Of a stretch of DNA of 64,000 nucleotides, positions 7,841 to 54,775 are shown in pieces. The stretch covers positions 868,001-932,000 of the forward strand of contig OZ237756.1 in NCBI GenBank assembly GCA_965178125.1. The letters run 5' to 3'. Position 1 is the stretch's first letter. The number at the start of each line of letters is the position of its first letter. Both the position numbers and the translations under genes were made by a program. The notes under the pieces are model-generated. The model saw only the letters and a list, made by a program, of their open reading frames with translations. It had not been told where the DNA came from and did no database searches. Origin of the DNA: Bilabrum cf. latius (Eukaryota).

Positions 7841-8470
7841 TTCGCAAATACATACTCCATTCGGTTAAAACCATGCGCATTAACATTCGGCTAATGCTGC
7901 AAGCAGATGTAGCATCCAGTGTCTTACCCAGTCCTGCAGTGGCTTTTGCATCTCCATCTCCCGTATAGCTAGCTAACGCTCGCTTGCAGTCGTTGCTAAT
8001 ACCCCATCGGTCTACTGAGCAGATGCAAGTGTGACCTCTGTTGCGCCGGATCGATCTGCAGACTGTAGCGCGCTTGCTCCCTGCCGCTACCGTCGCGCAA
8101 TCTCAGCCCGCATAGACGCAAGTTTACGCTGGTTCTCAGTCGTTGGTACAACTTTGGTAGATGATTTGTCCAATACCTATTTATCTGATGTTGAATCGTC
8201 TCGTTTGCTGGCAAAATATCGCTTGGAGATTTGCTGTCTCCATTTCTTCCATTGGGTCAACTAGTAGCGGCAGCAAATGCGCTGTACCACATGCTTAGTG
8301 ACTGAATAAGTATTTCTCTGCATCCAACTTAGGTTCACAGCGAGTGAGTTAGCTGTTAAGCCGACAACTGTGTGTCTGGTTCCGCTGCACTCGTCACTTC
8401 AACACTTCCTGGAAATTGTCGTGACAGAATTGCAGTTTCGCCAAATGAGAGAAACTACAGATAATTTGTA

Positions 8471-11155
8471 ATGAGTGTCTTCGTATTGGCCGGACCAGCG
8501 TGTCCAGAGGACGCTGGATATTTGCACAAACTTGGGAAACAAAAGGCAAGTAATTCGCGAAATTACATAGTTGCTCATATTGCTGTTGATTCCTGGGATC
8601 CAGTCGAGTCAAAGATTGTCGGATCCAAGTCTACATTGTTTTCTAGTTTTGAAGCGTTCGACGGCAGAGCTGCCTCGGATGATGGGCAGCCGCTGGTACT
8701 TGCACTTGGCCTAGGGAGGGCATTTCCAGCGGATGCAGATCGAACGGATGCCGAACGCCGGTCCAGCACAGTTGCAATCCCAGCCATTATCGAACAAATG
8801 GTTGCAAGAACTGCCCCCGGATCCGAATCTGTGGCATGCGTCGATCCCTTGCTGAGCATGGCTCCCTCCAACTCGAAGCGAGCAGAGCAGGTGCCCGCCG
8901 CGGCCGTCATCACCGACCCCAGAGAGCGCTGGTGCATCGGTGGATTAGAGCCGTGGGAGGCACGTAATGCCCTTCGGAAAGAACGTGAGAAGTGTCGCCA
9001 GCATAACGACCAATCGGCGCTGACCGGCCCCTCCGCGGCATCGTCGTCTGCTCCGATCGGACATGGTGCCTCACTAGGGGAGGTGCGAGAGGACGAGGCC
9101 ATCGAGCTGTCTACACCACCGCACTGGGTGTACGACGTGGAAGGTGGCGGTGTGACTAGTGACGAGGCGGGGCGATTGGCAGGCCGTACCGACAGCGAGA
9201 GCGAGGACGGAGACGAAGGCGAAGTAGGCGCGGTGAAGCTCGCCATCGAAACAAGCTGCTACCCTGTCGACGCCGATTACACTCGTCACACGGGATCAGG
9301 ATCGGAGCAGCCTGCGTCGCCATCGCCGCCGCCCCCCTGCCGGTCCATGCGGCTGCCAGGCAGGATGCACGAAGACCTGCTGCTGCGGCGGTCCGGCGCC
9401 GCGCAGCGGAACCTCTTGTGGAGGGTGCGGGTGAAGGTGCTGGAGCGGAGGGGTGCAGTTCCGCTGCTGCCGCCGGTTGCAACGCCTGGTGACATCGTGA
9501 CGAGTGCAGGTGCCGCCAGGCTGGGAGGGCTGTGGAACGGGTCTGGCGAGGAGGAGAACACAACATCGCAAGCAGCCTCGATGGACGCATCGCACTGCAG
9601 CGCCGCCGACGCAGTTCCTCTGGCCATTGAAGCCAAGGACCAAGGGGATAGTCTGCTCCGATCGGATCGGATCAGTGAGGCATGGAGGGCGTACGGGAGG
9701 GCCTTGGCACGGACCCAGGTGGGGGAGCCAGACGATTCGGACGGGCACGGCGATGGTCAAGAAGGGGGGCCAGATCGCTGCAGGACCGTGAGCATGGTCT
9801 TACAATAGAGGGACAAGGATGATGCTAGAGCGGAAGGTGAAGCTGGAGCGGCCAATGACCAATCGTCACGGGGCAATCGCACGCCTCATGGGCCGTCGGA
9901 GCCGCCACGGGCTCAGGCCCACCTGGCCCTGCAGGAGATACGGCTCCGAATACTGCTGAACCGCTCCCTCGCCGGCCGGCGCGTTGCCGAAGAGGTTCCA
10001 TCGGGATCTGGTGCGGGGGATTTGCAATGGAAACGTCCCGGGAAGTTCCTGGAACAGTCCCTGCACGACGCCCAGGAGGCGGGCCGGATCGGCTTGATGC
10101 TCGTGCAGCACCACTGGCATGCACAGCGCGACGATGAAGACGATGGCGATGCAGGGGCCAGTACAACCGCCTCTGGGCCACCTGCAATCGGGACGGAAGC
10201 CTCATCCCACTCGTCACACCTGAAATCAGCGCTGGGCCTGTACCGCAAGGCCCGGCTCCGGAGGGCCCGGGCGAGGATGGCCGCGATTCGGGCGTGCCGG
10301 AAGGGGACCGCTGGTGGCGGTAGCTGCTACAGTAGCGGTACAAGAAGTGGCGGGATAGAAGGGAGGCAGGATCGGTCGGGTGCTGCCGCCGCCACCACTC
10401 GTCACACAACAGATCCCCGAGGCAGCCTCGGTCTTCCCACCGCGGAGAGCACCGGCTGCTGCCTGCTGGGAGCCCTGGCGGATCTTATCGCGGCCACGGG
10501 CGGGGGTGTGGCGAGTGACAGTGTGACGAGTGAAAGTGTGACGAGTGCTGAGGGGAACAGGGAAGACGTGTCGCTGGGACCGGGCGATAGGCTGCTTGCT
10601 GCAGGTCGCGCCGCTTGTAGGCCGGTCCAGAGCATGGCGCGCGGCGGTGTGACGAGTGAAGGGAGGGTGCGGTCGCTGGCCATGATGCAAATCCCCAGAG
10701 CGATGCCGTCGGCCGAGCCCTTCGCATGCGTAGGGGACCCGGAATCAATACCGCTCGCGGAGTTGGTCGCAGATGTGCAGGGGGCCCTCTCTGGGCCCGA
10801 TGGCCTCCGCTAGAGGTGTGATGAGCGTCCGTGGTGTGACGAGTGGGAGTCGCAGGCACGGTGGTGGCTCGAGGAGGAAGCCGGGCCGGCGGTGGCAAGC
10901 AGAAAACGAACGTTCGGTGGGATTCTCTGCAGAGAGCCGGGCAAGGAGGAGACCAAGAAGGGGGAGGTATCGGCAGGGACAAGAGCAGTAGAAGCATCTG
11001 CAGCAATAGGTGCCGGTGCAGTGGCAGACCGCGAACTGGGCGAGCATGTCGGTGGGAGCGGCAGCCACATGCGTGGGCAACATGGCGGTGACGAGAGTGA
11101 CGCCGAAGGTGAGGACGAGGACGGCCTGGGCCTGCCTCCACTCGAGTACGCATGA
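8471..11155 (+). CDS. Hypothetical ~890-aa protein
   Basis: ORFs 8471..9808, 10022..10813 and 10892..11155 are one frame joined across TAGs at 9806 and 10811, ending at TGA 11153. No family recognised. Confidence 0.65.
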
Positions 11156-11536
11156 TCGAGATTTGCATCCGGGGTCAAGGTAGCGCATGATTCGCATCCC
11201 ATCCAATACTTCATGCTAGGTTATTAATTAAATATACCAAACGTAGTCTCGCAAAGCAAGTGGCCACAAAGCAGGGAGAGATCCCCTGCCTTCAATAATC
11301 ACGCAAACATCCAATCAGCTGACGAATCTCACAATGCAGTGCACCCCACGAAAGCGCTGCAGCACTGCAAAGACCGTCAAATGTTGCGGAAACAGCTAGA
11401 CACATGCGGACGCCCAATGTAACTACGCACAGCCGAAGCCGCCATACCCGTCGGAACGCCCACACCACCGGACGAGAGCGTGTATGACGAAGTGGTCGCA
11501 AACACAGTCGTCACACTTGTCTCCCTCAAGTCCTCA

Positions 11537-12702
11537 TCACACCCGCCGCGCCGCCATCACGAGCGCAGCACCCCCAAGCCCAAGGCCGAGAGCAGCGGCA
11601 GCAGCAGCGGCGGAGGCCCCGTGAGCAGCCCCCGAGGAGCAGACCATGGGATCGTACTCGTCATCATGGTCATGGTCATGCTCACCATCATCGTGGTCAT
11701 GCTCATGCTCATGGTCGTCGTGCTCGTGCTCCGACTCGGCGTTGCACTCGGCCGCCTCGCAGGCGTCCTCGAACTCGTGGAGGGCCTCTTCCACCGCCTC
11801 CGTAGGACCCACCTCAGGGCACAGGTCGTGCCAGGCGCGGAGCTTGCGGTAGGACGCGGTGCACTCGTCACTCCCGCAGGCGGTGCTGCAGGAGGACTGC
11901 TCCATCATCGTGATGGTGGATTCCACGCCGGCTTGGTCCGAGCACGACACCTCTGGGCAGGTGGGCAGGCTCTCGTTCCGGGCGCGGCGGACGAAGCACT
12001 CGTCACACGACTCTTCGAACGCGTGCACTCCGTTGGCCACGTCGGTTGGGATGGTGCTGGGCAGGCAGTAGTCGTGGTGCGCCTGCACGTAGTGGTAGGC
12101 GGCGCGGCATCCGGTGACACCGGCACAGGAAGTGGAGCAGCGGCGTTCGGGATCCGCAAGCACGGTGAATTCGTGGCGAAGACGTGCGGTGTCGGAGCAG
12201 TTGAAGACCCATCCCTCCTGCTGCGCCTCGCAGCCGCAGTCGCGCAGATGGTCGTTGTCCTCGTGCCCGTGGCCATGATCGTGCTCCTCGTCGTCGTCAT
12301 GATCGTGCTCGTCGCCTTCATGGTCGTGAAGGAAGCGTTGCATGAAAGAAAGAACTCCGTACTGTTCCATCGGGGGCTCGGCGCCCGCGGATTGGGCGGC
12401 CGCTCCCGAGATGGCCTAGTGGCAAGACGCATCTTCGAGGTGGTCCCCGTGGCATTGCGCGTGATTGTGAGTATCGATCTGCTCCGATACGCACATTCCT
12501 GGCACAGCAATCAAGCACACCTGCAAAGATGTAGTGTTGGGCACAAAATACGTGTTCGCAAATCGGTATCAGAGCAAAATCATTCGCAGCTGACACAATG
12601 GAAAGCAGACCACGATCGCAAGATTCAGCACCGTCTCACCCCGCAAACGGCAGCCGATGCGACCAGACGGCTGGCACAGTAATTGCATTGCTAATTCTTC
12701 AT
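11537..12702 (-). CDS. Secreted or surface-anchored His/Cys-rich putative metal-binding protein (predicted intron 12521..12639)
   Basis: Reads MKN*QCNYCASRLVASAAVCG|VCLIAVPGMC (signal-like), then two His/Asp/Glu tracts flanking two Cys-rich repeats (QAHHDYC..HAFEESC and RAWHDLC..HEFEDAC), then a hydrophobic C-terminal tail. TAGs at 12691 and 12416; ends TGA TGA. Phase-0 GTGAGA..TTGCAG intron. Confidence 0.75.
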
Positions 12703-13014
12703 GGCGATCTGGCTATTTTCCTTTGGATCCAGGCGAAAAATCGGTAGTTGCAGCTAGAGAAATGATCGTGCGGCTCCGCGCAGGAGGCACGTGGCCGATG
12801 CTGGCGAGGTTCCGCAAATTATGTTGGTTGCAACCGCTCGCAAGGTCGAAAGATCAAACAGACGATAGAAAAACAATCTCGACATAATTGGTCATTATAA
12901 TTGCATCATCCGTAGTGCTATCCAATGTTAGGGGCATGCATGCGAGGGAGGCTCTAATTTTGTGTGTCGTTCGATTCAAATCAGTAGTACTGATTCAGTA
13001 CAGCAGGAGTTCGG

Positions 13015-13127
13015 GCCGAAGATGGGCTTCAGCTGCCTCATCTCCCAGGCCTGCTTGTCAACGAAATCTTGCCTCGACATCTCAAATACCTCGGCCGGGT
13101 GTACATTCGGAGGTATTCCTCCTTCCG
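13015..13127 (-). pseudogene. Frameshifted, degenerate villin-headpiece remnant
   Basis: RKEEYL/(-1 nt)/NVHPAEVFEMSRQDFVDKQAWEMRQLKPIFG aligns codon by codon to the intact headpiece at 14812..14940. Confidence 0.55.
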
Positions 13128-14581
13128 GCGAGCAAGGCATTGATCCGTGCAGCCACCGCATCGGTACCCCCCTCATCCGGGTGCGGTGTGACGAGTATCC
13201 TATCGATGGGTCCCGACCCGCAACCCAGGCAACCCGCCTCAACCTACCCACCCCCTTCCGCCCGCCACTTTGACCACTCCCTCGCGTACTGCGATCGTGG
13301 AAACTCGTCGCTCAGGTCTTCCAGCGACACGTTGACGCGGTACTCGTCATACAGCTCGGGCCTCACCATTGGACGCAGCTCCAGCACCAGGTGCTGCCCC
13401 GCCGGCCCAAAGTCGGCACAGAAGCACTCGTCGGTGCAAGAGAACAGGCCAAGGAAGGAGCCCACAGCCTGGATGATTACCCTACCACCTGTCGTATGCG
13501 GTGACCAAGTCCCATTTTGACCACCCCCTCTCCGTGTTTGGCCACCCTCCAGCCGCTCCCACCGCCCAGAGTCCCCCGTTCCATCGCTAGCCCCACCACC
13601 ACCGCCGTTGCTGCCCCTCCACAGGCATGCCAGGGAACAACAGCCCCCGCACGCTCCCCGACCAAGCCCGGCCCGCGCCATGTCTCGGCCCGTTGCAGTC
13701 CTGGCAGAGACCAGCAGCCTCTCGCTGAGCATGGGGGACCAGGCAGAGTCGCAGGCCATGAGATGAGACACGCATGGCACACGCCCGCACATCACGCCGG
13801 TTGCGGAACCGGGCGCCGCGCCGAGGTCCCCGCGGTGCACTGGGAGGATCTTGTTCGGCTTGAATCGGGGGGGCAGGCGAACCCACTCGTCACTCGCGTC
13901 TGGACGCGTGCGAGGACTGCAGCATACGCATTCTCGTCGCCTGGCCTCCCGCCACTCTTCCAGCGTCAACGCCGCGCGAGCAGCTGCCCGGGCATCCAAC
14001 TCCGCCTCCCCATTGGGATGGGCCGCAGAGGTGATACCGCGTCCTATGCCGAATGCGCCACCGGCAAATCGTAACCTGCGGCCATACTGCAGCATCAGAA
14101 ACAGCGCCAGTAATCCAAACGTAAGTCCAGTGAAGCCTGATATGGTCGTGATAGACCAATAGGCTACATATTCGCAGTCCTGGCGAAGCTGGGCATCGGC
14201 GTCGTCGTCCCTCGAATAAAAGTCGTCGTTGCCTTCTCCATCGCCGCGCTTTGGGCATGCCCTTCCATCGCTACCATGGCTTGGCTTCGGGTATTTCTTG
14301 GCGAGCAATGGGCTGGTAATGATGGATGCGGTGCCTCCCAGCATCAACACAGTTGCAAGTACTATTAAACAGAGTTGCCGGCCCCTTGGCTCTGCCAGTT
14401 TTAGATCGATAGAAGCTTTTGTTTCAAAGAATCGTGCCTTTGAGACATGATAGTCTTTAATGGCCAAACTTCGATGCAGTAAGAGGGTGCCACCCACAGA
14501 TCTGATGTTGCTGACCGCGTCCAGCCTTTGATCGCTCTAGAGTGACACGCAGGGCGCAGCTGCCGGGCCAGGACGCTGCAT
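13082..14581 (-). CDS. Hypothetical membrane protein with two predicted TM helices
   Basis: ORF 13244..14497 extends through TAGs at 14537 and 13244 to TGA 13082. Hydrophobic segments LCLIVLATVLMLGGTASIITSPLL and ISGFTGLTFGLLALFLML. Start uncertain. Confidence 0.6.
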
Positions 14582-14811
14582 AAAGTAGTCACTACGTTTG
14601 GTGCTCAAGCTTGATAGCTTCAGGTGCGGGGTGATTGTTGTGGTGTGTTGGCGAAGGCAAACGAGCAACGACGGAACCTTCGGCGCAGCGTCCAGGAAAC
14701 GCCGCGGAAATCTGAGCTTGGATCCTCATTGCAGTAGCCTGTCAAACGGGTGTGCAGGCATGAAAGTCAGGAATGATTGCTCCAAATCTACCTACAGTAC
14801 ATCGATTCAAA

Positions 14812-14975
14812 TCAGAAGAGGCCGACGGCTTTCTTCAGCTATGCTCTCTTCCATGGCTTCTCCTCGGCGAACTCCTTCCGCGACATCCCGAACACCTCGG
14901 CGAAATCCGCATCCGTGAGGTACTCCTCCTTCCGCGAGAAATCAATTTCCAGGTCACCACCTCCTTTGGCGTCCC
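14812..14975 (-). CDS. Villin headpiece (VHP) domain exon; probably the terminal exon of kinase-ARM gene A, or an orphan fragment
   Basis: IDFSRKEEYLTDADFAEVFGMSRKEFAEEKPWKRA*LKKAVGLF-TGA matches the headpiece consensus YLSDEDFxxVFGMxRxxFxxLPxWKQxxLKKxxGLF-stop. TAG at 14839. Confidence 0.8.
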
Positions 14976-15042
14976 TAAGGATGGCTACATCCAATCGTGG
15001 GTAGTATGCTCAGCCTGTCCAATCTAGTACCTTACATGACTC

Positions 15043-18000: not shown

Positions 18001-18225
18001 CGCCACTCTGTAGACAGCACCGAATCCGCCGCGCCCCAGCAAGACTCTCCCCCTTGCAGGTTTTACGCATTGAGCACACAGAATCATTGAAAATTGACGA
18101 CGCTGTACCGTGGTACCAGATTGTGTCATACGATATACCTCAATCACGCTCGCGGGAAGCTGGGGAGCGGGCATTAGCCAGGGATCGCTCTCACCGGCGC
18201 TACTGACAGGACCAATTGATGACAT
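15043..18225 (-). CDS. Kinase-ARM paralog A: PINK1-like Ser/Thr kinase + (APP)n + putative TM + ~9 armadillo repeats
   Basis: Motifs LGRGGFGAVY, IAVK, HRDLKLDNVM, LIDFG, GGNQAHLAPEVL, then 42-aa ARM repeats (AVVDAGALPGLVGLL..AAGALxNIA). Single frame with TAG at 17164, 17050, 16411, 16099, 15595, 15565 and 15091; first TGA at 15043. Confidence 0.85.
15060..16200. repeat. 126-bp ARM-coding tandem repeats with a 504-bp higher-order unit
   Basis: Near-identical 126-bp units; equivalent TAGs recur at 15091, 15595 and 16099 (spacing 504 = 4x126). Confidence 0.9.
16747..16840. repeat. 9-bp tandem repeat (tgctggcgg)x~10 encoding (APP)n
   Basis: Perfect array visible in the sequence; absent from paralog B. 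Confidence 0.95.
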
Positions 18226-18389
18226 TAGAAACAATACTGTGAACTACGATTTCCTTTGGAGCACTCCGGAGTTCAGCAAGAAACCAGGACCGAAATATGC
18301 AACTCTACTCCAGACCAGACCTGCTCCAGACTGGACAATCACGATTTTATCACAATTGCACGTCACAATGCTTTAGTAGTTTTTGCGGC

Positions 18390-19100: not shown

Positions 19101-22100
19101 TCACTCTATACCTAATGCTTCCAGAGCCGTTCTTGCCTTCTCCGATTCAGGGCCCTAGGCAGAGCTCCTTAGAATGCCGCGTGGACGGATGCCGCCTGCA
19201 TAGACCAGCGGGCCACTCGTCACACGCGATCTTGATTTTCGCGGTTTCCCAAAGTCCCGCAGTCGCCTCAGAGGGGCCACTGCACCTGCATCCACAATGG
19301 CCTGCTTCAGCAGGCCATGAGATCCTTTCGCAATACTACGGAGTGTCCACGCCGCGTGCATGGCTTCATCATCTTTACTCGAGCTTAGCAGGTTCACCAG
19401 CCTGGGCAGCGCACCTGCATCCACAACGGCCTGCTTCGTACGATCCGACCAACTGGCAGCGTTGCGCAGCGCCGCCGCCGCCGCCTCAGTGCCACGGCCC
19501 TTGTCCGATCTCAGCAGCCCAACCAGTCCAGGCAGTGCACCTGCGTCCATCACAGCTTGGACCAGCTCCTCCGATCCAGTAGCGATGTTCGCAAATGCAA
19601 ACGCCGCATTCCCAGCCTCGTTGCCCTTGTCCGATCCCAGCAAGACTACCAGCCCATGCAGAGCACCGGTGCCTACCACGGTCTACTTTAGCTCGCGCGG
19701 CCCCTTAGAAATCCTAGACATCGCCGCGGCCGCGTACTCAGCCTCGATTTCTCTCTCCGACCTCAGAAGGCCCACCAGCCCAGGCAGCGCACCTGCATTC
19801 ACAACGGCCGTTTTGAGGCCATCCGACCCAAGAAGAATATGCGCTAGTACTCCCAAGGCAGGCCCAGGCCTAGCTGCATGGTCAGCATCCGACCCCAGCA
19901 AGCCCACAAGACCAGGCAGCGCACCTGCATCTACGATAGCCTGCTTCAGGACGTCTCGCCCGGCAGCAATGTTCTGTAGCGCCCATGCCGCATTTTCGGC
20001 TTTGTCGCTGGTGGCCGACCCCAGCAAGCCCACAAGACCAGGCAGCGCACCTGCATCTACGATAGCCTGCTTCAGGACGTCTCGCCCGGCAGCGATATTC
20101 CGCAACACCTAGGCCGCATTTTCGGCTTTGTCGCTGGTGGTCGACCCCAGCAAGCCCACAAGACCAGGCAGCGCACCTGCACTCACGATGGCCAGCTTCA
20201 GGACGTCTGGCCCGGCAGCGATATTCCGCAACACCTAGGCCGCATTTTCGGCTTTGTCGCTGGTGGTCGACCCCAGCAAGCCCACAAGACCAGGCAGCGC
20301 ACCTGCACTCACGATGGCCTGCTTCAGGACGTCTGGCCCCGCAGCGATATTCCGCAACACCTAGGCCGCATTTTCGGCTTTGTCGCTGGTGGTCGACCCC
20401 AGCAAGCCCACAAGACCAGGCAGCGCACCTGCACTCACGATGGCCTGCTTCAGGACGTCTGGCCCCGCAGCGATATTCCGCACTGCCTTTGCCGCATTCT
20501 CGGCCTCCTTGCCCTTGTCCCATGATAGAAGGCTTACCAGCCCAGGCAGCGCACCTGCATCCACAAACATGCTCTGGGAAGCAGAATCTAAGGACGTCTG
20601 CCACACGATAAATGCCCCTATCAGTGCATCCGTTTCACGCTCTGTCCCGAGGCTCTCTGCTATCCTCTATATCTCGCCAGGATCGCACAGCACGTGCTTT
20701 TCGACATTGCTGCGGATTTCATTCAACAGCTGCTTTGAGACACCAGGCAACTGATCGGTCGAACGGATGCCCGACTCCACCCGCAGCTGCCAAAGCACTC
20801 GGTACACCCCATCCCAGTCCCCCTTTGATTGCAGTCCATCCACCAGCGCCCTGATCCTGACCACCGCTGATTCGCACTCCTCGCCCCCAGCAAGCAACGC
20901 AGGCAGCATGGCGCGGACGTCAGTATCTGGTCGAGTCCCCCTCTTGGATGTCCCACCAGATCGCAGCACACGCACCGCCTCCTCAACATCCATCCTGTCA
21001 TCAGGGTCGATACAAAGCAGCTCATGGACCATTATGATGTACCACCCCGGGCGCTTCAGCAATACATCATGATTTACAAATGGAGCCACACATGCATGCA
21101 ATGCAGCTGCCAGCTCTCCTGGTTTAGTCTTGGTGCCCTCCTGCAGTTCAGCAGGGTACGAGTCCCCAAACGGGTGCTTCCCTCCAGTGGCCAGCTCGTA
21201 CAGCAGCACACCAAGCGCCCATGAGGCTTGCTTCCCAAATGGTACCTCGGCTGTGTCGTCTCCTGCCGCCCCCCTGTTCCACCCGTCCAGCACCTCAGGG
21301 GCCAGATGGGCCTGGTTGCCGCCCAGCCCGGCACCGCCATACTTCAGCTCCCGGTACGTGACCAGGTCCAGCGCATCCTACACAGCGGATGCTTGCGGCG
21401 TATCAGCACCACTGGCTGTAGCAGCAGCGGGGTCGGCTGATACAGCAGCTCCATCTGCATGCACGCGCAGCGAGCACCCCAAGTCGATCAGCACCGCACG
21501 ACCCACGCCCTCCGGACCCCCCTTCGAGTCCCACATCACGTTGTCCAGCTTCAGGTCACGGTGCACCACCCCGTGCTGCAGCAGGTGATGCACGCCATCC
21601 GCGATGTCGCTGGACAACTGCACAAGCACATCGTCAGGCATGGACCCCGGCTCATCTCCTTCCATTGCCTGCAAATGGTCGCACATGCGCCTCTGCAGCA
21701 GCTCCATGCCCACCATCTGGGCCTTGCGGGGCCGCAAGGGGGCGGCGCCATCGGACGGTACACCTTCTCCGCCATCGGCATCATCGCCGTCAGTGTCAAT
21801 GCACACCAAACTCGGATCAGGCATCATCTCCACCATCCACAGGGGAGGCTCACACACGCACTCGAATAGGACACGAACCAAGTTGCGGTGCTCGGGTAGG
21901 CGAGCGAGCACATCGAACTCTTTCTGGGAATCGATGGTTTCGAGCTTAGAAGTGGACATAGCCCAGTTGAAAACGGTCTTGACTGCAATTTGATCGGTAT
22001 CTGGTTGCGCCTCCCCCGTTGAATCGCCTCTTTCTTGTGAAATTGCAGCGCGAAAGACGGTACGCTACCCTGCTCGCCAAAGTGTCACAGGTTCACCAGC

Positions 22101-29088: not shown

Positions 29089-32000
29089 TCATTTTCCTGC
29101 TGCCGAGTCCACTCTCGGCCTTTCGAACTGCAGCCTGCCATCGGTGTGCTGGTAGATGATCTTCCCGAAGGACCCGGGGCAGGCAGACCAACCGTCGGGC
29201 AGCTTCTCCCCTCCGAAAAGGAACGCGGGCACCCAGCGAGCCTCCCTCGGACGATCACCCCAGCCCGCGTGCACGGGCGTGTGGTCGTGTCCAGAAGCTA
29301 AACCAGGACGGTGCCCAGAGTCAGCCTTGCCGAAACAGTCCAGCACTGCCACAAGAGAGGCACAGCATCTTCGCATCTCCTCGGGGGCGTCACCTTTTGC
29401 CAGCAGCTCCTCATGCAGGTGCCTGTCCCACAGCGAGGCCTCCCCTTCCACCAGTGGACGCACGCGATACTTCGGATAGCTGCAGGCGTAGCCGAACATG
29501 GCCCGCGTTCCCGCGCTCGGGGGCCGCAGCACAGCCATGGGCCCCGCCTCTACAGCGGCACGCTCCCACCTCTCCCTCTTGTCACCTACCCCGGCACCCA
29601 CTGCGTCCAGCAGGGAATCCTTGAAGTCGTGCTTACCCAGAATCCCGAAACTAAGCTCTTTGGGCGCGGGGGCCAGCTCGCTGCGCAGGCGCCGCTCGGC
29701 TTCGCCGATCCCTTCTGCACCACCATACCCGCCCGAGCAATCCAAACCAGCCACAAGGCATTGGCTCCGCCCCTCAGTGCCCAGACTGTTCTCATCGAGC
29801 CCGAGGGCGGCTCGCAGGACTGCCTCCTCCGCCTTGTTCTCCGGGATTCCGTACCCCCCAGGAGACAGGCGGCCTCTTGCGGGACTGGCACGGACCCCCG
29901 CTGAATGACCACGCTCGTCTATGTAGCAGCTGGCGCCTTCTTCGTCCTCGTCTGACTTGTGCTCCAGTTCGTGGTCATGGTAGATGCCGCCACCGGCACC
30001 GCTAGAGGGACCGCTCCTGCCTCTGTGTCCACCGCTGGATTGAGGATAGCGACCCCGGCCGCCAGACGCGCCAAATGCAGCAGCCGCGGTGCCCCCGATT
30101 AACCGGCAAGCTTGCCCAGCATCGCCACACATCGTAGGGGTGCAGGATTCCGCGAGCGCAGTCATGGGCAGTGGCGGGAGAGTCTGCTCGGCCTCAGCGA
30201 GCTGTAGCTGCTGGGAAGTTACGAATTGCCGCAGCAGCTGGTCGCACTCCTTCGCCTCACTTGCGTAAGTTTTCGCCTCGCTGATATCCGAAGGTCCATA
30301 GAGCATGGCGGTCAGAGCCTTGTCAGCCTCCTCCTGCGGCAGCCTGTCTCTAGGAGATGCCTGGAGCAGGCCGCGTAGCACCAACTCGAGCTCCTCGCTG
30401 CAGCTGGCTACATTTGGAAGCCAAGGGATGTCACGGTTGGTATAAGTTGGGCCCTGCGGCAGCTTGACCTCGCGTGTGCCGGACCTCTAAGCGCCTTGCT
30501 TGGAAAACAGCTCCCAAATCACCTTTGCGAAGGCCCACTCGTCACTGGACTCGTACACCTGCGCGACCTTGTCGATCAGCATTCCATGCGCGTCCTTAAG
30601 GCCCTACTGGCGGCGCATTGCGAGGTGCTCCGGCGCCACCACCATGCCCGCACCCTTGGGCAACGACTCGGAATTCGAACTGGAGAACTCGGCCTGGAGC
30701 CCGCACCCTTGGAAAGGTGTCCGCCCGCTCGGTTTCGTGCCGCCAGCACCTCCACCGGCAGCCGTGTCACTGCCAACGCCGGACCCGTATGCTGCCGTGC
30801 TCGTGCCCATGCCCGAGCCCGGGCAGTTCTACCCGTCGTCGACGAACCCCATACGCAACGTTTTGGAGGGGTCCGCCAGCAGCTCTCGCGTCTCTTCGCG
30901 ATTCGCAGCCCTGCTCGCTAGCTCGTCTTCCGCGAAATGCTGCGAACTCTGCTAGCGGCCGGTCTGCGACATGGGCTCTGGGTCGCCTTCTGGCCTACTC
31001 TTCGTATAGGCGGAGGCGGAGGCAGAGGCACTCGATGGCTCATGCCGAAGCCCACCATCCCTGAGACCCATCGGATCGCCGCCACTTTGACCTCCAGTGA
31101 TGCTGCCACCGGTAGCCCCTCCATCTTCTGGGTCGTTGCCATCGCGCAGGTCGCGATCGAGATCTTCGGCCGATACCTTCTGCATCTTCTCAATCTCTGC
31201 CATCATGTGGTTGCACCAGTGCTCCACACCGCCGCTGAAGAGAACAATGCCTTGGCTCCACTCGGCGAGCACGATCCGTCCGTCTGCCGCAAGAAAAATG
31301 TTGGCAGCGTGCACGTTTCTGTGGGCGACACCTCGTGACTTTGCGTGGTTGAGTGCCTGCAGCCCCTGCTTGAGCCACAGAGCCGCTTGACGAGACGAAA
31401 TGAGCCCGCCTGCTGCCCAACATGCCTCTGCTGCGTCCTTGAGCGTCGTTGGCAGGCGTTCCTGTACCGTCCACAGGATTTTCCGCGACTTTGCCCATGC
31501 CAGTTGCCTCGGTGACCAAGGCATGCGATCGTCCTGAATGAGATCCGAAGATCCAAAGAACACGTGTTGCATTGACTGCACGTTGGGATGGCCATGCAGA
31601 GTGACCTACTTGCTTGTCGAGTCCTTTTCCACGTCCTTCCGCTCGCCCATGAGCACGCACAGCATCCACTCGGTGTTCTGGCGCTTGGCCAGATCAGCGT
31701 CAAGCGAGCTCTTGGCATCGAGAGCGATGAAACCACGCAGGACTAGGGACTACGGGGGTGGGGCCCCGTTGTCGTGCACGCGTCCTGGGATGCTCATCAT
31801 GCGAGCCATGACCTCTGTGTGCACCTCCACTGCAAATGAAATGCCGCTCGAGACGTCAGAGGACCCGGGGCCGGCCACGATTCGGCGAGGAGATCGTTTG
31901 GCACTGCACTGGCCGCTGCCGGCTGCACCTGAAATATCCTCCTCGCGCTGTTGTTCTTCTTGTTCTTGTTCTTCTCGTTCTTCTTGTTCTTCTTGTTCTT

Positions 32001-34965: not shown

Positions 34966-37336
34966 TCAGCCTCGCACCGCAGCCCGCACCCCAATCGTCA
35001 TCTTCGCAACCGACCGCATCGCAGCGGCCCCATCCACCGTCGATCGAGGCCTCTGCCCCACGGCCGGCTGCCTCTCCACCACGGAGGAGCGCCCGTTCAC
35101 CACGAACAGAGGGTTGGGCCCCTCCACAGCCCCAGGGCCCACCGACACGCCCTCGAGGTGCTGCCTGGCAAGCTCCTTCAGCCTCCGGTTTTCCTGCTTG
35201 AGACCCTACAGATGCTTCTCCAGCGCCAGTTTGTCCACTAGTGCACGGTTGTATCGCCCGTAGAACCCGTCGAGAAGGTTCTCCTGCCCCACCGCACCCT
35301 GGTCCGCCTTGCGGAGGGCAGTCGTGCGGGCGAGCACCGGCGGCAGCCCATCTCGCAGGACCTTTTGTGTGATGAGTGCAGCCCCATCAAGCCCATCATC
35401 GTGTGACAGAGCCATGCTTCCAAGGCGGCGGGAACGCCTCGCCGCGCCTGCGATCCCAAAGGAGGTCGAGGAGGAGGAGGAGTGTGAGGGAGCGATACCA
35501 GCAGGCTTGTGCTTAATTGCTGTTGCACCATCCCTGACGCCTGAGGATGGGCTGCCCTTGCCCCCCTCGCCGTGTAGATTGCTCTCGGAATGCCTCGCAG
35601 CGCCTTCACCCTCGCCCTCGCCCTAGCCCTCCATCCTCTCGTCTGCCTCCTTGCCGCCGGCAGACATCGCCTCGAATGACACGATCCCAATGGGCGCAGG
35701 CGATCCTCTGCCGCTCGAGGGCCCCTCCAGCCGGCCCGCGGGGGAGCCCATCCCAGACGCCAAACCGGAACCAGAGCGCGAGTTGCCACCCGCGCTACCC
35801 GCCACGAGACCCACCCCAAGCCGGACGACCCCATCCCCCGCCGGCCCACCCGCGCCCCCAGTGCTGCTGCCGGCCCTGCCTACCCGCATTAAGACCGTTG
35901 GCTCCTGCACCGGGCTGGGGGGACCCTCCGGCGCGTTGTCCCAAAGCTCGGATCCAACGGAAGCCACCGATGGCTGCGAGCCGATGCCGGGCCCTGTGAC
36001 GAGTGGGGCTGCAGGTGCCCCACTGCGCGGGACTGGCTGCGCATCCTTTTGCTCTCCTTCCCCCTCCTGCCCCCCACCACCTCGGCCACCGCTGCGCCAG
36101 GTCGCCCCCGAACCGATGCTCATCTACTCCAGACCTGCACTCATGGTGTCAGCCAGTGCCGCCAGTCGGTTGGAGGGTCTGATTCCCTTAGGGTCGTGGA
36201 AGGGCGCGATTTTCTCCGCCGTGCTTTCCAACCGGCGGGCCCTTTCCTGGAGCCTAAGGATGCGCTCTGCCGTGGCGGTCTGCTCGGCCAATGCGGCCTT
36301 GCATTGCCCTGCACCCAGTGCCATCCGCTTGAGCCGTCGCCCTGCCACTGTGTGCAGCTGCCTCATCCGGGATTTCAGGGCCCGGTACTGATGTAGCACT
36401 CCTGCTTTGCCCTCTTCCATCTCTTGATTTCTCCGCTCCTCGTCCCTGTTCCCGTTCATGAGCTTCGTCTTCCACACGGAGACCGAGTGGGTGAGAATCT
36501 TGACGCGCTCCTTGCGTTTTTCCAAGTCTTTGACGAGCTTCTTCTCGTTTTGCATCCGACGCTTGTACTCCTGCGTGCGCTCATCAGTGTTTGTGATGTA
36601 TGCAGTGTGCTCGTCTTCGAAGTGGTCAGACAGCGCCTAAAGCTTTGCATCCATCTGGGACTTGAGCTAATGGAAGTTTTCCAGATGCTCCGAGCTCAGA
36701 ATCTCTCTCTGACGCTCGTACTCTGCTTGCGCATCTTCCATGGTGAGTTCCTGTTTCTCTTTTAGGACCGCGATGTGGTGTACTAAAGCAAACTTCTCGT
36801 CAGCATGAGCTTGCTCCAACTCCTTCTTCTCCTCAGCGTATGTCCGTTTGATCACTTCCTTAGCATGGTGAAACTCTGCATCGAGTAGTGCTACCCTTTC
36901 TTCTTGTAAACGAACAATTTTTCGGATGCGAGCTAAGTGAGCAGTGGTTGCAAATCGCGTCTGCTCCTCAGCCTCCTCCGTATCCACGTCAAGCTGCTGC
37001 AGATGGGCATCTTTCATGTCAACATCACGCTTATGGGATTGCATCACGATCTCCATGTCTGATTTCACCCGCTCAATCTGCAGGACGACAGGATGGGCGA
37101 GGAGTTTAAGTGGGCATCGGCAGGGTAGGCCACTGCGAATCTATCGAGCGAGGACAACAGCGACTCACTTTGCTGTCTCTAAGGAGCTTAATCCATTTGG
37201 AATGCAACTTTTTCTAGCTGATTGATGAGTCTCGTAGCTCGGTTTTTAAGGCCCTACGAAGCCTGTACGCCGTTTTTCGTAGCACCAACCTTCGCCTGTC
37301 AGCCTCTTGCTCTGCTTCGATCTTCGCTGCCGCCAT
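34966..37336 (-). CDS. CCDC65: Dynein regulatory complex subunit 2 (CCDC65/DRC2)-like (intron 37078..37168)
   Basis: KWIKLLRDSK|IERVKSDMEIVMQSHKRDVDMKD..DTEEAEEQ..AHL and the C-terminal FYGRYNRALVDKLAL..LKQENRRLKELARQHLEGVSV..NPLFVVN match DRC2 motifs. TAGs at 37214, 36667, 36637, 36124, 35623 and 35206; stop is TGA. Confidence 0.8.
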
Positions 37337-38208: not shown

Positions 38209-38373
38209 ATCTTAAATAGGGGAAATATTTGAGTTGTTAGGAGGTGGCCATCAGTGCAACAGGCCTCTGCACCGTGTGTGATTTCGTGCCCCAAAACACA
38301 CGATAAATTGCATGCTACTATATCTATCCTAGAATCTATGTCCAAATTCAAACCCACTCGCTACACGTGCTCA

Positions 38374-41300: not shown

Positions 41301-44300
41301 CGCCGATGTTCAGGTACTGAGACCGGCCCTTGAGGGTCACGGCGCGGGCCAGCACCGGGTCAAGCGTGGCATCGAGGTCCTGCCCGCAGTTCTCGAGGAT
41401 GAGCGTGAACCCGTTGGTGATGCACTGGCTCAGGGTGTTGGTCCACTTGGGCTGCGTCAACTGGGTCACGGTAAGGTTGTTCTCCTCCTCCCTCTTCCTG
41501 AGCCACTTGATGCCTTGCAGCTGGGGGTCGATCAGCAAGGGCCAGCGCTTCGAAGCGGTCGTGATGGCGCCGTTCTCCAGCGAGATCCTGTCCGAGGGCA
41601 GGCCCTCTGCCATCATGTCGGCCTTGGCGGCCTCGCTGACCAGCACGTCGAGAGGGTCCATGCCCTCGCTGATGGGCACCTTGAGCTCGGCCACCTTGGG
41701 CAGCCACACCTCCTGCCACAGCTCGTTCCTGTACGTGTAGTCGAAGGCGCCCAGATAGGACACGAAGGCGGCACCAACGAGGGCATCGCCGATGAGCATC
41801 CTCTTGCTGTCCTTGAGCGCCTGCACGGTCTTGCCCCAGCGATCGTTCTCGCTCTGCAGACCGTTCACGAGACGGTTGGCCAGACCCAACTTTGCGTTGC
41901 ACGCCGCCGCGTCGGCCTCCACCTGCTCCTTGGCGGCGGTCTTCTCGGCCAGCATGGCCTCCAGGCCTGCTACCTTCTCGCGGACCGCCTGCAACTCCTC
42001 CGTGGCCTTGTCCTTCTCGGCGATGGCCCCGTTCATCTTCTCCTCCGCGGCATCGGCTGCCTTAATCAGAGGGTCCACCTTCACGAAAATGCGGTTGAAG
42101 TTGTAGCAGTTCACCACGAACTCACACAAGGAGGCAGCGGCCCCCGACTTCTTCGCGATGGCCTCCTTGTTGAAGTAGTCGAGCGACAGGAACTCCTTCT
42201 CCAGCTTGGCCAGCTGCCAATCCTCCAGCGTCTTGATGTCATCACCCTCCGCGAACACCATCAGCTCGTCCATGAAACCCATCACGTTCTTCATCATCTT
42301 CTGAGCGCGCTTCCAGGACAGGTCCTTCTTCTCCTTGAAGACCATCACCAGTGTCGCGGCGGTCACCGACACCACGGCCGGGGGAGGCTTGCCCAGCGAC
42401 TTGAGCGTGTCCAGCTCGCTCTTTGCCTTCTTGAGCTCGTCAAGAGCTGCAAAGGCCGCCTCCATGGCCGGCTTAGCCTTGGCCAGCTCCTTGTCGGCGT
42501 CGGCCTTGATGGCCATGGCCTTCTCGCTCTCCTCGGCTGCCCTGGCGGCGATGGCGGAGGAGGCCTGCTCCTGCACCTCGGCGTCGGCCTTCTCCTTGTT
42601 GACCACCTTGAGGATCTCCTCCGTCTCGGCCACCTGCTCAGCCACCTTCTCCATCGTGTGCTGCAAGTCGACCTTGAGCTCCTCCACGGTCTGACCGGTG
42701 GACATGAGCTTGGCGAGCCCGTCGTCCAACCTCTTGATGTTCTTGCCCGACTCCTCCCTCTTGTCGCTGAGCAGCTTGCGGTACAGCGAGATGAGCTCCA
42801 GGAAGCTCTTGGGGGTCGTGTAGTTGTACCGGCGCTGCCTCTCGAGGTACACCGCGCTCTTCTCGGTCACGCTCAGGTGGGCGTCGGCCATGAACTCGGC
42901 CACGCCCGAGGCGATCTCGTCATCCTCCAGCTCGACGTCGCCGAGGAACCGCTCCGCCACGCTGATGAGTGCGTCCCTCGGCCAGGCCATGAATCGGTCG
43001 ATGGAGGTGCAGTTGACGATGCCGGGGAAGCGCCTGGCCCGGATGCGGAAGAGATCTCCGACGGGGCTGAAGCACAGCACCACGTGGAGGTTGCTCCTGA
43101 TCTTCTGCAGCATAAAATCGAAGAGAGCGCCCTGGTCGTCTACCATGACGCCCATGGCCTTGGCCTCGTTCCGCACGCTGCCCACCATGTTGAGCACGTC
43201 CTCGGGCTCGAACAGGTCGGGGATCCATCCGCTCGTCAGCATCTCGTTGATGTACACGAGGAACTCGTCGTCCACGATCTGGCCGTCCGTCATGAGGAAG
43301 ATCTGCCCGCCGTCGTCCTTGGTCGCGTTCTTGTATACGACCTGGAGTGCCTCTCGGAGGTCCGTCGTGGTGAACTTACTCGTCACACTGAGCTGCACCG
43401 TGTGGTACCCGCAGATGTGCGCAGCCAGTCGCGACAGGGACTGCTTGCCGCTGCCACCGACACCCACAAGCATGGCATGCCCCCCAGGCTACGTGATGAT
43501 CCTGGCGATCCTGCAGACGTGCTGCATGGCTGCCTCGAAGAGCACCAGTTCCATCACGGAGTTTTCATCGTTGTACACACTCAGCTCGTCCACCAGCTTG
43601 TTTGTCAGTATCTCCATGCCCTTGTCGCCTGCCGTCAGGGGAAGGTAGACGGGCTCGCCGCCGGGCTGACCCGCAAAGGACGTGAAGATCATGGGGTACA
43701 CGTCGTACTCCTCCTTCTTGTACTCCTTGAAGCATTCGCTGCAGACCTCGGTGATCTGCTTATCGAACTCTGCCTGGTCCTGCTCGTCCACCAGCCGGTC
43801 CCTGTACACGCGGCACGACTCGTGCATCCACAGACGGATGACCTTCTCGGGCTTGGGATAGAAGTCCGACCGGGCGGATGTGAGCCCACGGTAAACGTTA
43901 CCGAGCTCCCGCATGTTCCAATTGTACATGAACGTGTTGGCGGAGGGCAGGAACTTCGTGGAGACGCGCTCAAGAAGCTTGATGGAGGCCTGCGCCAGCA
44001 CCTCGGATAGCTCGGCAACGGGCGGCGCGAACTGGTTCACGCGGAAGTGGCCCTCCATGATGGACTGGTAGATGGTCTGCAAGTCGCCTTCGCCAGGCAT
44101 GAGCGTGGCGAAGAGCGTGAAGGCCCTCTGCAGCCGCATGGCGATCTTGAAGGAACCCGCCGTGGGGTTCATGGCAGACACGAACTGCACGTCTGCGAGC
44201 TCCTTCTTGAGCCCGAGATCCTCCCTGTCGAAGTAGGAGCCGTGATCGATGGCCTGGCGCAGCAGGGACAGCGAGTTCTGCGTGCCGTACGTCTCGATGT

Positions 44301-52833: not shown

Positions 52834-53071
52834 TGTCTCGTCTCCGTCTCAATCACCAGGTGGTTTATAGAGCTGAGAAGCCCAGCTGATGAATCTCAGT
52901 AATCACAAGTAAAGATTGCGAAGAGACTGTAAGTTAGCTACCGGCAGATGCGGCAGCAAACTCGATTAAGGAATCGTCCAGCCGTTTGTCGAATTGTCTG
53001 ATATTTGGAGCTGGTAACGTGCCATAGTATCAACCGGGCGGATCCATGACGATCCGGTGCCTATTTACGAT

Positions 53072-54400
53072 ATGCGGATCATTCTCCCTCGCATATTGCA
53101 TAATCCATTATGGAATAGTGTAATATGTTTCTGTGCAGGCACAGTATGCGCGGCGGGGGCAGCCTTGGTCGGATACTACGCACTATCGCGGTCGAGAAAT
53201 AGAGAGCTCACCCTTTATGATGATGTTCGTGATTTACTTTACTTGAAATCACAAAAAAATGCGCTGGATTCCTCACTGAAATCACTTCCCATCAACATAT
53301 TGGACATCATGATGGCGGGCGCGCGCATCTTTAAATACACCAACCGGACGAGGATCGCGACTTCGAGGACGATGGATAAGCTGGCCTGCATGGCTACGAG
53401 TGCACCTCCAGAGCCCGAGCAATCAGTGCCCCGTCGCGTGCTTTTCAAGTGCGAGTGCTTCTAGCGGAGCGGGTCCTTCAAGTTCCGCGGGGCAACCAAC
53501 GCGGTCCTCTCGCTGAGTGACGAGCAGGCCAAAAAGGGGGTCGTCACGCATTCCTCCGGGAATCACGCCCAGGCCCTGGCCCTCGCAGCCAAGCAGCGAG
53601 GCATACCGGCATACATCGTCATGCCGCGCACGGCCCCAGCCATCAAGCAGAGGGCCGTGAGAGGCTACGGAGCCGAGGTGACGCTGTGCGACCCGAGCAA
53701 CGAGGCCAGGGAACAAGCGGCGCAGGAGGTCGCAAAGCGCACGGGTGCGTTTCTCGTGCACCCCTCCAACGAGCCCATGGTCATGGCGGGCCAGGGAACA
53801 ATGGCCATCGAGCTGCTCGCCTAGGCACGGGAGGAGCTGGGCTCTCCCAGCGACGGGGGGCCAATCCTGGATGCGGTGATCGTGCCAGTGGGCGGGGGCG
53901 GGATGCTATCGGGGGTGGCCGTGGCGCTGCGAACCGTAGACCCCAGAATACGAGTCATCGCAGCGGAGCCCGAGGGCGCTGACGATGCCTATCGATCGCT
54001 TGCTGCAGGTGCCCTGCAGGCCCACAGGGAGGGGCACCCGGACACTGTGGCAGACGGGCTCAAGACGACCCTGGGCAGCAACACGTGGCCCGTGGTGAGG
54101 GATCTGGTGGACCGCGTGGTGCTGGTATCGGAGGAGCAAATCAAGGAGGCGGTGAGGCTCGTGTGGGAGCGGATGAAGCTGGCGGTGGAGCCCAGCGCGG
54201 GGGTGGGTGTGGCGGCTCTGATGAGCGAGGAGGTGAGGGGGATTGCGCGACTGCGACGCATCGGGGTGATCTTGTGCGGGGGCAACGCGGATGTGGGCAA
54301 GGTGGGTGCCTGGCTGTCGGAAGGCAATGAGGCGGGGAGCGATGGCGCAGCAGAAGAGGCGGGGGCGGCTCCTGGTGGGGCGGGGGCGGAGGAGACTTGA
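53072..54400 (+). CDS. SRR: Serine racemase / serine-threonine dehydratase (PLP fold type II); start uncertain
   Basis: FKCECF*RSGSFKFRGA (PLP lysine motif), THSSGNHAQA, GQGTMAIELLA*, VPVGGGGMLSG, DTVADGL, VEPSAGV, ILCGGN. TAGs at 53462 and 53822; stop is TGA. Confidence 0.92.
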
Positions 54401-54775
54401 ATGGCACGAATAATTGGATGTTGGTTTTCTTCGGTGTATTGGTTCGCGCTTCTCGCGAAGATCCAAGTGCCACTTTTTGTGGTCAATCTTGATGCCCTGG
54501 GGCGCACTCGTCACTAGCGCGGCCTGGACTCTTTGGCCCGTTCAGTTTGTCACAGGCTGCTGGGAAGCGAATAGACTAGGAGACACCCAGGCGCGGTATT
54601 TTTGTGCCTGTGTGTTCCCTTGGCGTTGCATTTACCGTAGCATCGCATTTATTGGACTGGCAGAGCAGACCCGCAACCAACCTTTGCAAGACGCTGCTGG
54701 GAGGTACTGGGCTTGATACTCCCATCATAAGGGATTCAATACACGGCCAGCGGCTCTGTACTGAATAGTTTTAGG

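Follow-up and report, generated by a model that had tools for sequence, protein, structure and literature searches.

In a GC-rich, single-celled eukaryote, a 12-base word, G(T/A)GTGACGAGTG, turns up in genes far above chance level. In the window, that is, the whole 64 kb stretch of DNA analysed here, the word is genuine and has sharp limits; it does not depend on coding, clusters at one locus and is not removed by splicing, and it is found elsewhere too. It exceeds chance on either strand and in any frame and is mostly packed into one locus of 5.5 kb, which suggests that the DNA as such is being read by something. Our tentative explanation, held with less than even confidence, is that a DNA-binding factor of high specificity docks at the copies, which substitution and short tandem duplication would have produced.

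Definition and enrichment of the word

A preliminary description of the stretch listed 18 exact copies of the 9-mer GTGACGAGT and proposed a longer consensus. Every one of the 18 was recovered in place, with strands now added (Table 1), and the extension is borne out by the logo, G-[T/A]-GTGACGAGT-G. In counts that cover only 64 kb of the genome, these 18 copies compare with a mean of 0.26 in dinucleotide-preserving shuffles (sd 0.50, maximum 2; none of 100 reaches 18), and an order-3 Markov model gives 0.45, close to the roughly 0.5 estimated earlier. Sixteen of the 18 copies have G directly 3' of the 9-mer; at position -1, 12 have T, 5 have A and 1 has C, and 13 have G at position -2; no information was found outside these 12 bases among the 18 copies. 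Flank identity between copies is that of the background (5.41 and 5.57 of 20, against 5.24 +/- 0.2 in 300 control sets). The 10-mer has 16 exact copies versus 12 one-letter copies across 30 possible variants (4.1 expected), and each variant is far outnumbered by the exact form, as in DNA uptake sequences. The reverse complement of GTGACGAGTG is CACTCGTCAC, and the word is thus not a palindrome. The 8-mer GTGACGAG occurs 23 times in the window, in the 18 exact copies and in five near matches; the latter, reported earlier at 9159, 11088, 53518, 59856 and 60767, are all present, with a likeness to the word limited to this 8-mer.

Table 1. Copies and close variants of the word in the window, with the three genes of the dense locus
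Feature	Positions	Strand	Context
Word copy aGTGACGAGTG	8388..8397	-	In the 109-base gap between the gene B and gene C RNA-like contigs
Gene C	8471..11155	+	Orphan ORF, 894 residues, open only with TAG as sense
Two overlapping near copies, GTGACTAGT and GTGACGAGG	9151..9167	+	Gene C, translated GGVTSDE
Word copy	9280..9291	-	Gene C antisense, TRH; 47 bases 5' of block conserved with P0002
Word copy	9496..9506	+	Gene C sense, VTS; 12 bases past block conserved with P0002
Word copy	10208..10219	-	Gene C antisense, HSSH; 16-base perfect inverted pair with 10833-10848
Word copy	10396..10407	-	Gene C antisense, TRH
Tandem array, period 15, 2.8 units	10506..10547	+	Consensus GTGTGACGAGTGAAA, translated VASDSVTSESVTS; contains exact copies 10523 and 10538 and near copy 10507
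Word copy	10647..10658	+	Gene C sense, GGVTSE
Word copy	10834..10845	+	Gene C sense, other frame, CDEW; decayed copy GTGATGAGCG 20 bases 5'
One-letter variant GTGACGACTG	11505..11514	-	Beyond gene D stop codon
Gene D	11537..12750	-	His/Cys-rich orphan; GT..AG intron 12521-12639
Word copy	11862..11872	-	Gene D sense, SDEC
Word copy	11997..12007	-	Gene D sense, CDEC; equivalent position in the protein's internal repeat
Gene E	13082..14725	-	Orphan ORF with hydrophobic stretches
Word copy without final G	13186..13196	+	Gene E antisense, LVT
Word copy	13884..13894	-	Gene E sense, SDEW
Word copy	19214..19225	-	C-terminal tail of armadillo-repeat kinase gene G, VTS
Word copy	30536..30546	-	Kinase gene I, SDEW, residues 787-790, within kinase-domain match
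Word copy	35994..36005	+	Gene J antisense, low-complexity middle, LVT
Word copy without final G	43377..43388	-	Dynein heavy chain, SVTS
Word copy	54505..54515	-	Spacer between PLP-enzyme gene and coiled-coil gene

The dense locus and the copies beyond it

The clustering seen earlier stands: 13 of the 18 copies (72%) fall in 8389-13893 (binomial P = 8e-11 for a given 5.5 kb), against about 0.09 per kb elsewhere. Among the products encoded in the window are dynein, cullin and proteins with WW, CH and PH domains. In the host, TAG is a sense codon, and introns, which are spliceosomal, are few; neither this code nor the 15-base arrays had been noted in the preliminary description. Gene C, for which no Pfam family was matched, holds eight exact copies (five sense, three antisense) and is transcribed as one piece, a single RNA-like contig spanning 8443-11227 without gaps through all eight; the gene B contig ends at 8333. 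Matches at word sites also come from further contigs of this organism, and the deepest contigs of the stretch in run X5 cover gene D, with a mean word depth of about 228. Transcripts do not skip the motif, and an identity as a 5' splice site or introner is rejected; the two real introns begin GTAAGA and GTGAGA. Transposon terminal inverted repeats (MITEs) were likewise discarded, none of 22 inverted pairs within 3 kb having a flanking direct repeat of 2-10 bases and similarity not extending inward from the copies, as was segmental duplication as their source. The window has no Rfam matches and no tRNAs.

Beyond the dense locus, the copy at 43378, placed earlier inside a dynein, indeed lies in an outer-arm dynein heavy chain, where it aligns without gaps to VSS, ISG and ISA of solved dyneins. 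Because the alignments are ungapped and conserved, the dynein and kinase-domain copies were not inserted but arose by substitution. Local micro-duplications, of the kind that multiplies binding sites, are present. The 15-base array at 10506-10547 contributes two of the 18 exact copies and one near copy. A metagenome contig (L042), all 799 codons of which are open only with TAG as sense, carries six copies in a gene non-homologous to gene C, all six in two 15-base tandem arrays of three and four units. Every array of gene C and L042 is in the VTS frame, and a G-rich lead-in, GGCGGGGGTGTG, is common to both.

Gene C has only two relatives, P0001 and P0002, which share two conserved blocks with it, and all of its word copies lie outside these blocks. 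The two copies bracketing a conserved block are missing at the corresponding places in P0002, which has VTS elsewhere; this looks like site turnover inside a persisting cluster. As these two block-flanking copies are not conserved in the sole comparable relative, purifying selection on individual sites finds no support.

The word is not explained by coding

The preliminary description inferred a signal at the level of DNA, not one due to protein sequence, and synonymous-codon shuffles, codon choice and the occupation of both strands and five frames support this. Sixteen of the 18 exact 9-mers lie in coding DNA and two in spacers. The enrichment outlives synonymous shuffling (16 in-gene copies versus 0.83 expected, with a maximum of 4 in 300 shuffles), both within individual genes of the dense locus (8 versus 0.33 in gene C, 2 versus 0.075 in D and 2 versus 0.10 in E) and in all other genes together, where four copies compare with 0.25 and none of 1000 shuffles reaches four. 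The finding thereby withstands both of the refuting tests set for it in the preliminary description, a codon-preserving null and confinement to one locus. Relative to their genes, 11 copies are sense and 5 antisense, 5 of the 16 being in the second sense frame; each of the translations given earlier (VTS, C/S-D-E, TRH, LVT and S-S-H) was found. Word codons spell 6 of 11 VTS, 5 of 5 [CS]DE[CW] and 2 of 2 TRH peptides, drawing on codons that are otherwise rare: AGT is used for only 8% of Ser residues and TGT for 19% of Cys residues. Coding does not account for the copies, because they take rare codons and occupy five stop-free frames.

This bears directly on the proposal that short protein motifs, GGVTS[DE] and [CS]DE[CW], share codons by chance, which we regard as extremely improbable. 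GGV[TA]S[DE] does occur three times in gene C and also in a CoaE-domain gene and L042, and [CS]DEC recurs at equivalent positions of the gene D internal repeat. Nevertheless, codon usage and the synonymous shuffles, which exclude such sharing, largely refute a peptide motif; there are five distinct translations, two copies lie outside genes, and the sole GGVTSE in a conserved domain, that of the CoaE-domain gene, is spelled with other codons, GTGACGAGC. At the other extreme, a transcription factor site, one of the options raised earlier, is disfavoured in its promoter-type form because only 2 of the 16 exact 10-mers are intergenic while spacers make up 19% of the window; the spacers are not enriched, and a promoter element is rejected.

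What might read or spread the word

We infer that a protein reads the word, and likewise what its reading would achieve. A factor of very high sequence specificity, which we picture as multi-zinc-finger-like, would recognise G(T/A)GTGACGAGTG on double-stranded DNA. New copies could arise by point substitution, even within conserved codons, and further ones when a short stretch of 7, 15 or about 20 bases is duplicated in tandem, and they would be retained where the peptide tolerates them, mainly in disordered parts of the coding DNA that are under little constraint. The 8.4-13.9 kb region with genes C, D and E might then be a homotypic array acting locus-wide as a regulatory or architectural docking platform, the sparse single copies elsewhere being weak sites. 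The motif is discrete and locally dense, with unrelated flanks and both orientations, as is characteristic of homotypic clusters. Against docking sites, the mostly coding location without spacer enrichment is unusual for a regulatory site, the exact-to-variant ratio of 16 to 12 is sharper than in most transcription-factor sites, and the VTS-frame arrays also fit a peptide repeat or a slippage-prone minisatellite. A more far-reaching proposal, which we consider quite unlikely, is that the TAG-sense lineage selects the word across genes, on both strands and in all frames, for a dedicated reader, with dense arrays marking special chromosomal sites such as origins, recombination sites, or sites that serve pairing or resemble centromeres; if so, it would be a eukaryotic counterpart of bacterial genome words such as DUS, Chi and HIP1.

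The main rival, possible though somewhat unlikely in our judgement, dispenses with a reader: the word would be a neutral minisatellite core, part of a repeat of 15 (and 7) bases that is prone to slippage, grows and decays where coding DNA is unconstrained, and is seeded elsewhere by short-patch templated repair or ectopic micro-conversion. Tandem arrays do exist (2.8 units at 10506-10547, three and four in L042), as do the overlapping 7-base copies at 9151 and a decayed copy that precedes 10836 by 20 bases; the copies sit in fast-evolving segments and vary among relatives, and arrays in two non-homologous genes share a lead-in. Slippage is, however, unable to yield the inverted or the second-sense-frame copies (each 5 of 16 in genes), conversion tracts are not visible because the flanks are unrelated, the dynein and kinase copies came without indels and with rare codons, and the logo has fixed ends where templated patches should be ragged. 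The same features that suggest docking sites would also suit a motif whose reader starts meiotic or mitotic recombination, with arrays as by-products, on the pattern of the shared core of human minisatellites and the PRDM9 13-mer: one core is tied to tandem arrays at unlinked loci, and such a motif works within genes in either orientation. We find this improbable, as hotspot motifs should erode rather than pile up 13 times in 5.5 kb, and four runs showed neither joints nor rearranged forms at word sites, though their contigs drop rare variants.

Two other signals can be weighed against the same distribution. A genome-wide word driven by repair, methylation or uptake, like HIP1 or the uptake sequences of Neisseriaceae, would account for exact copies exceeding each variant, for the occupation of both strands and all stop-free frames and for the approximately 16-fold enrichment in genes beyond the cluster, and the word contains one CpG. 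It is nonetheless very improbable, given that the word is not palindromic, that 72% of copies are at one locus with about 0.09 per kb elsewhere, that a CpG observed/expected ratio of 0.86 gives no strong sign of methylation-driven decay, and that the host is a eukaryote; we know of no DNA uptake system in such a host. It is also very doubtful indeed that the signal acts in RNA, by pairing of sense and antisense copies in mRNA or by binding of the sense copy to an RNA-binding protein or small RNA. The single gene C transcript carries five sense and three antisense copies, and the minimum-energy fold of 10180-10870 has 10205-10220/10833-10848 (16 bases) as its outer stem; yet the stability of this fold is ordinary (z = -1.72, with 1 of 20 shuffles equalling it), spacers hold two copies, orientation is mixed at 11 sense versus 5 antisense, and duplexes of 10-16 bases are short.

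Comparison with known DNA words

To our knowledge, over-represented genome words that have a dedicated reader, a textbook subject in bacteria, are hardly described within eukaryotic genes. Here, the word overrides codon preference, reaches a conserved dynein domain and forms arrays in unrelated genes of two TAG-sense sources. If a factor reads it, it would give direct access to a new DNA-protein recognition system in a poorly studied variant-code lineage and would mean that exons can bear, beside the protein code, a second layer of information; if it is instead a neutral minisatellite core, a repeat-prone sequence would be able to seed itself through coding DNA.

The closest parallels to putative docking sites are the twelve Su(Hw) sites of the gypsy insulator and the 12-base ZIM/HIM-8 pairing-centre motifs of C. 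elegans, which have multi-zinc-finger readers. The word shares with these arrays a length of about 12 bases, high information, either orientation, unrelated flanks and density at one locus with sparseness elsewhere, but they are non-coding with known readers, whereas 16 of its 18 copies are coding, conserved domains included, and its reader is putative. Human hypervariable minisatellites have a shared core and the PRDM9 hotspot motif is a 13-mer; these, too, are short cores common to unlinked tandem arrays and also found as single copies, but they are degenerate and non-coding, while the word is nearly invariant and exonic.

The DNA uptake sequences, DUS of Neisseriaceae and USS of Pasteurellaceae, are read by the competence machinery. 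They resemble the word as sharp, non-palindromic words of 10-12 bases, dominated by exact copies, on both strands and in every stop-free frame in genes. Their hosts are bacterial and they are spread evenly at about one per kb, often as inverted pairs behind genes; in contrast, the host here is a eukaryote rather than a competent bacterium, and the word is strongly clustered, with tandem arrays. HIP1 (GCGATCGC), a genome-wide, methyltransferase-linked 8-base palindrome of cyanobacteria, is likewise hyper-abundant across coding and non-coding DNA, whereas the word is mostly local and uneven (13 of 18 copies in 5.5 of 64 kb). The HIP1-like option of the preliminary description fits worst of the kinds of signal because the word is non-palindromic and so concentrated; an array of binding sites and a mark for recombination or replication stay candidates. 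Finally, the CRE/M26 heptamer of fission yeast, ATGACGT, bound by the bZIP pair Atf1-Pcr1, resembles the word in containing TGACG, and it acts within coding DNA and in either orientation. A bZIP site of this type is rejected, since the TGACGT core is absent: the word reads GTGACGA, with A in place of the T that completes the CRE half-site in all 18 copies, and it has 12 informative bases versus 7.

Count and sharpness of the word

The word G(T/A)GTGACGAGTG spans 12 bases. All 18 exact copies of its 9-base core listed in the preliminary description were recovered at the same places and on the same strands, against 0.26 expected (largest 2) in the window, with none of 100 dinucleotide-preserving shuffles reaching 18. 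Aligned to one another, the copies yield a logo of 12 bases, in which the invariant 9-mer is preceded by G at position -2 (13 of 18) and by T (12) or A (5) at position -1, and is followed by G in 16 copies. No further informative position was found beyond -2 to +10 in this alignment, weak peaks at -26 and +28 not being significant once the positions are counted. The 11-mer TGTGACGAGTG occurs in the window 10 times exactly, 15 times as one-letter variants and 14 times as two-letter variants; the corresponding ranges for six letter-shuffled control words are 0-1, 0-1 and 4-23. Likewise, there are 16 exact copies of the 10-mer versus 12 one-letter variants over all 30 possible (4.1 one-letter variants expected), which marks the word as unusually sharp. 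With three internally repetitive stretches masked (1-2000, 15000-16450 and 19250-20900), no other word in the window is as over-represented at any length from 8 to 12. The census covers this 64 kb of the genome. A full-text search for the word and its complement, together with a general search, turned up no report of it in the titles and opening parts of abstracts that were listed.

Gene models and genetic code

The window is eukaryotic, with a G+C content of about 60%. TAG occurs in frame six times in the dynein heavy chain, TGA and TAA not at all, and solved dyneins align ungapped through two of these TAGs. With TAG taken as sense, about 15 long ORFs emerge in the window; over 15 gene models there are 67 TAGs in 17,242 codons, and the frames are free of TGA and TAA. 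Judged by these reading frames, TAG is a sense codon in the host; in homologues the residue aligned with it varies between L, N, S and K. The gene models, which are ORF-based and cover 81% of the window, are our own, as is the reading of TAG. Only two introns, both canonical, are seen in 7-15 kb; long genes, the 14 kb dynein among them, have none.

Features of the window (positions within the window; empty cells where no value applies)
Feature	Position	Strand	Remarks
45-base tandem repeat	1-1900	-	about 40 units; codes for a tail rich in Gly/Ala/Thr/Asp that weakly matches collagen repeats and is joined in frame to a cullin-domain ORF
Cullin			
Intron near 5' end of gene B	7796-7927	-	132 bases; GTAAGA...CAG
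Dense locus	8389-13893		13 of the 18 word copies
Gene C	8471-11155	+	
Overlapping near copies of the word	9151-9167		two, shifted by 7 bases
15-base tandem repeat	10506-10547		2.8 units
Gene D	11537-12750	-	
Intron near 5' end of gene D	12521-12639	-	119 bases; GTGAGA...CAG
Gene E	13082-14725	-	
Armadillo-repeat kinase	15046-18372	-	protein kinase domain, then 126-base armadillo repeats
Armadillo-repeat kinase, adjacent paralogue	19104-22328	-	same architecture; armadillo repeats 95% alike
Outer-arm-type dynein heavy chain	38374-52530	-	4718 codons
Protein with WW, CH, PH and ankyrin domains			
PLP enzyme			
UAA-family transporter			
Protein with CoaE and NUDIX domains			
AATCGTAAC	3677, 14067, 18888, 23361, 37836		
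CAGGGAACAA	13631, 53707, 53792, 55552, 56185, 56624, 58749		

Coding sequence does not account for the word

The preliminary description held that protein sequence does not explain the word, and this stands against a null in which synonymous codons are shuffled within each gene, keeping the proteins and the codon usage per gene: 16 in-gene copies are seen versus 0.83 expected (largest 4 in 300 shuffles). Taken singly over 1000 shuffles, gene C has 8 copies versus 0.33, D 2 versus 0.075 and E 2 versus 0.10. Nor is the excess confined to the dense locus, as the other twelve genes together have 4 copies versus 0.25, a number reached in 0 of 1000 shuffles. The word relies on rare T-ending codons (AGT makes up 8% of Ser codons and TGT 19% of Cys codons), and it encodes 6 of the 11 VTS, all 5 [CS]DE[CW] and both TRH peptides of the window. 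Eleven copies are sense, five antisense and two in spacers; the sense copies occupy both stop-free frames (6 as VTS, 5 as xDEx) and the antisense copies all three. The synonymous shuffles and the codon choice thus reject a protein motif or codon bias as the source of the word. Two copies, one in the AAA module of the dynein and one in the gene I kinase domain, fall within ungapped conserved alignments, which indicates that at least these two arose by substitution rather than insertion.

Placement of the copies

The concentration of copies in the dense locus has a P of about 8e-11 for a given 5.5 kb. Gene C has eight of these copies and genes D and E have two each; the remaining one falls in the 109 bases that separate the B transcript from the C transcript. 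Intergenic DNA, 19% of the window, holds 2 of the 16 exact 10-mers, and a promoter element is unsupported since spacers are not favoured. Small duplications of the word can be seen at three places: the 15-base tandem repeat at 10506-10547, the overlapping near copies at 9151-9167, and a decayed copy 20 bases before 10836.

Gene C belongs to no Pfam family, and just two relatives of it were detectable among 5.8 and 1.8 billion proteins. None is of near length and none covers residues 470-894; a full HMMER scan with gene C returned the same fragments, P0001 and P0002, and nothing more. P0001 shares 87% identity with residues 1-176, and P0002 shares 86% with residues 290-338 only, its flanks being unalignable. 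The blocks conserved with either relative contain no copy of the word. The inverted pair at 9281/9497 flanks the second conserved block, within the unalignable flanks, and P0002 has neither TRH nor VTS at these places, although a VTS is present in it three residues after the shared PPHW. From the lack of copies in the conserved blocks and the differences from P0002, the copies sit in fast-evolving segments and vary between relatives.

Transcripts and structural alternatives

Contigs of four public sequencing runs, three of which (X5-X7) are guessed to be RNA and show spliced joints and gene-wise steps in depth, were placed on 7000-15000; such contigs conceal rare variants. One contig runs unbroken and without a mismatch through 8443-11227, crossing all eight gene C copies, and the only well-supported joints are the two minus-strand GT..AG introns, with GTAAGA and GTGAGA as their first bases. 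Hence, the word is no splice signal and is not removed from RNA, and a splice site or introner is ruled out. In four further joints (8939>11592, 9333>11101, 9338>11591 and 7584>12368) each side measures just 20-22 bases, and we attribute these joints to fortuitous resemblance to other contigs. For the convergent genes C and D, the RNA-like contigs meet exactly at 11227/11228, with a ten-fold step in depth (22 versus 228 in run X5), so that the 3' ends of the two genes adjoin with hardly any spacer.

Transposon ends are rejected, as target duplications flank none of the 22 inverted pairs and the sequence flanks of the copies are at background. Segmental duplication of longer pieces is rejected as well, since the flank identity of copies equals that of control sites; the longest stretches common to copies are 14-16 bases, by our estimate about the chance number for 153 pairs. 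With a z of -1.72, the stability of the RNA of 10180-10870 is unexceptional, which lends no support to a stable RNA structure, and the window has no Rfam family or tRNA.

The word outside the window

Among run contigs of the same organism, others match short pieces exactly at word sites: a 19,872-base contig does so over 10523-10553, with mismatches at 3 letters, and a 2,088-base contig over 10630-10658. Similar short matches fall at non-word places too, and together these contigs offer weak evidence that the word occurs elsewhere in the genome. A metagenome scan for pairs of the word spaced by 0-30 bases returned at least 124 stretches. Among the matches listed, 111 of 123 loci are (GTGACGA)n heptamer repeats in unrelated contigs, which dominate because the 10-mer amounts to 1.4 heptamer units. 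In many unrelated GC-rich metagenome contigs these arrays form inverted pairs 30-90 bases apart (L004, L034, L052, L057, L064, L110 and L111), a distinct structure that is probably prokaryotic.

The only relevant locus among the matches listed is L042, a metagenome contig of 2,399 bases with 58% G+C, which is open across all 799 codons only with TAG as sense (387 under the standard code). It carries six copies of GTGTGACGAGTG, arranged in two 15-base arrays that encode GVTSD repeats. Apart from the repeat (12 of 16 residues, E = 0.02), its protein has no homology to that of gene C, and a G-rich lead-in, GGCGGGGGTGTG, is common to the arrays of both. By these occurrences the word is not private to the dense locus, and it is probably present in a second, related source.

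Origin of the word

What the data require is a process, indifferent to strand and frame, by which one exact 12-mer in duplex DNA is recognized or created; such a process must be strong enough to beat codon preference and must be focused at particular loci. Systems that offer themselves for comparison are DUS, HIP1, Su(Hw) arrays, pairing-centre motifs, the minisatellite core and PRDM9, and M26. The best reading, which we put forward tentatively, is that the word array represents putative docking sites of a DNA-binding factor of high specificity. Substitution and micro-duplication would supply new sites, which would be tolerated chiefly in unconstrained parts of the protein.

Its main competitor is a minisatellite core, neutral and repeat-prone. 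Such a core accounts for the arrays, for their use of the VTS frame alone and for the turnover, but not for copies that are inverted, in the second sense frame or in conserved domains, nor for the logo having fixed ends; we hold it to be unlikely, if still deserving of weight. That the word is a recombination-initiation motif seems improbable, and a genome word in the manner of HIP1 or DUS seems very improbable. To a signal acting at the RNA level we would give slighter credence still, and protein motifs are hardly credible.

Other over-represented words

Two further words recur in the window. CAGGGAACAA has 7 copies versus 0.18 expected, 6 of them sense, read as REQ in one frame and QGT in another; a single low-complexity coiled-coil gene contains three, and composition may account for part of the excess. 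AATCGTAAC has 5 copies versus 0.06 expected under an order-4 Markov model and, because 4 of the 5 are in spacers beside gene ends, is a candidate promoter or terminator word.
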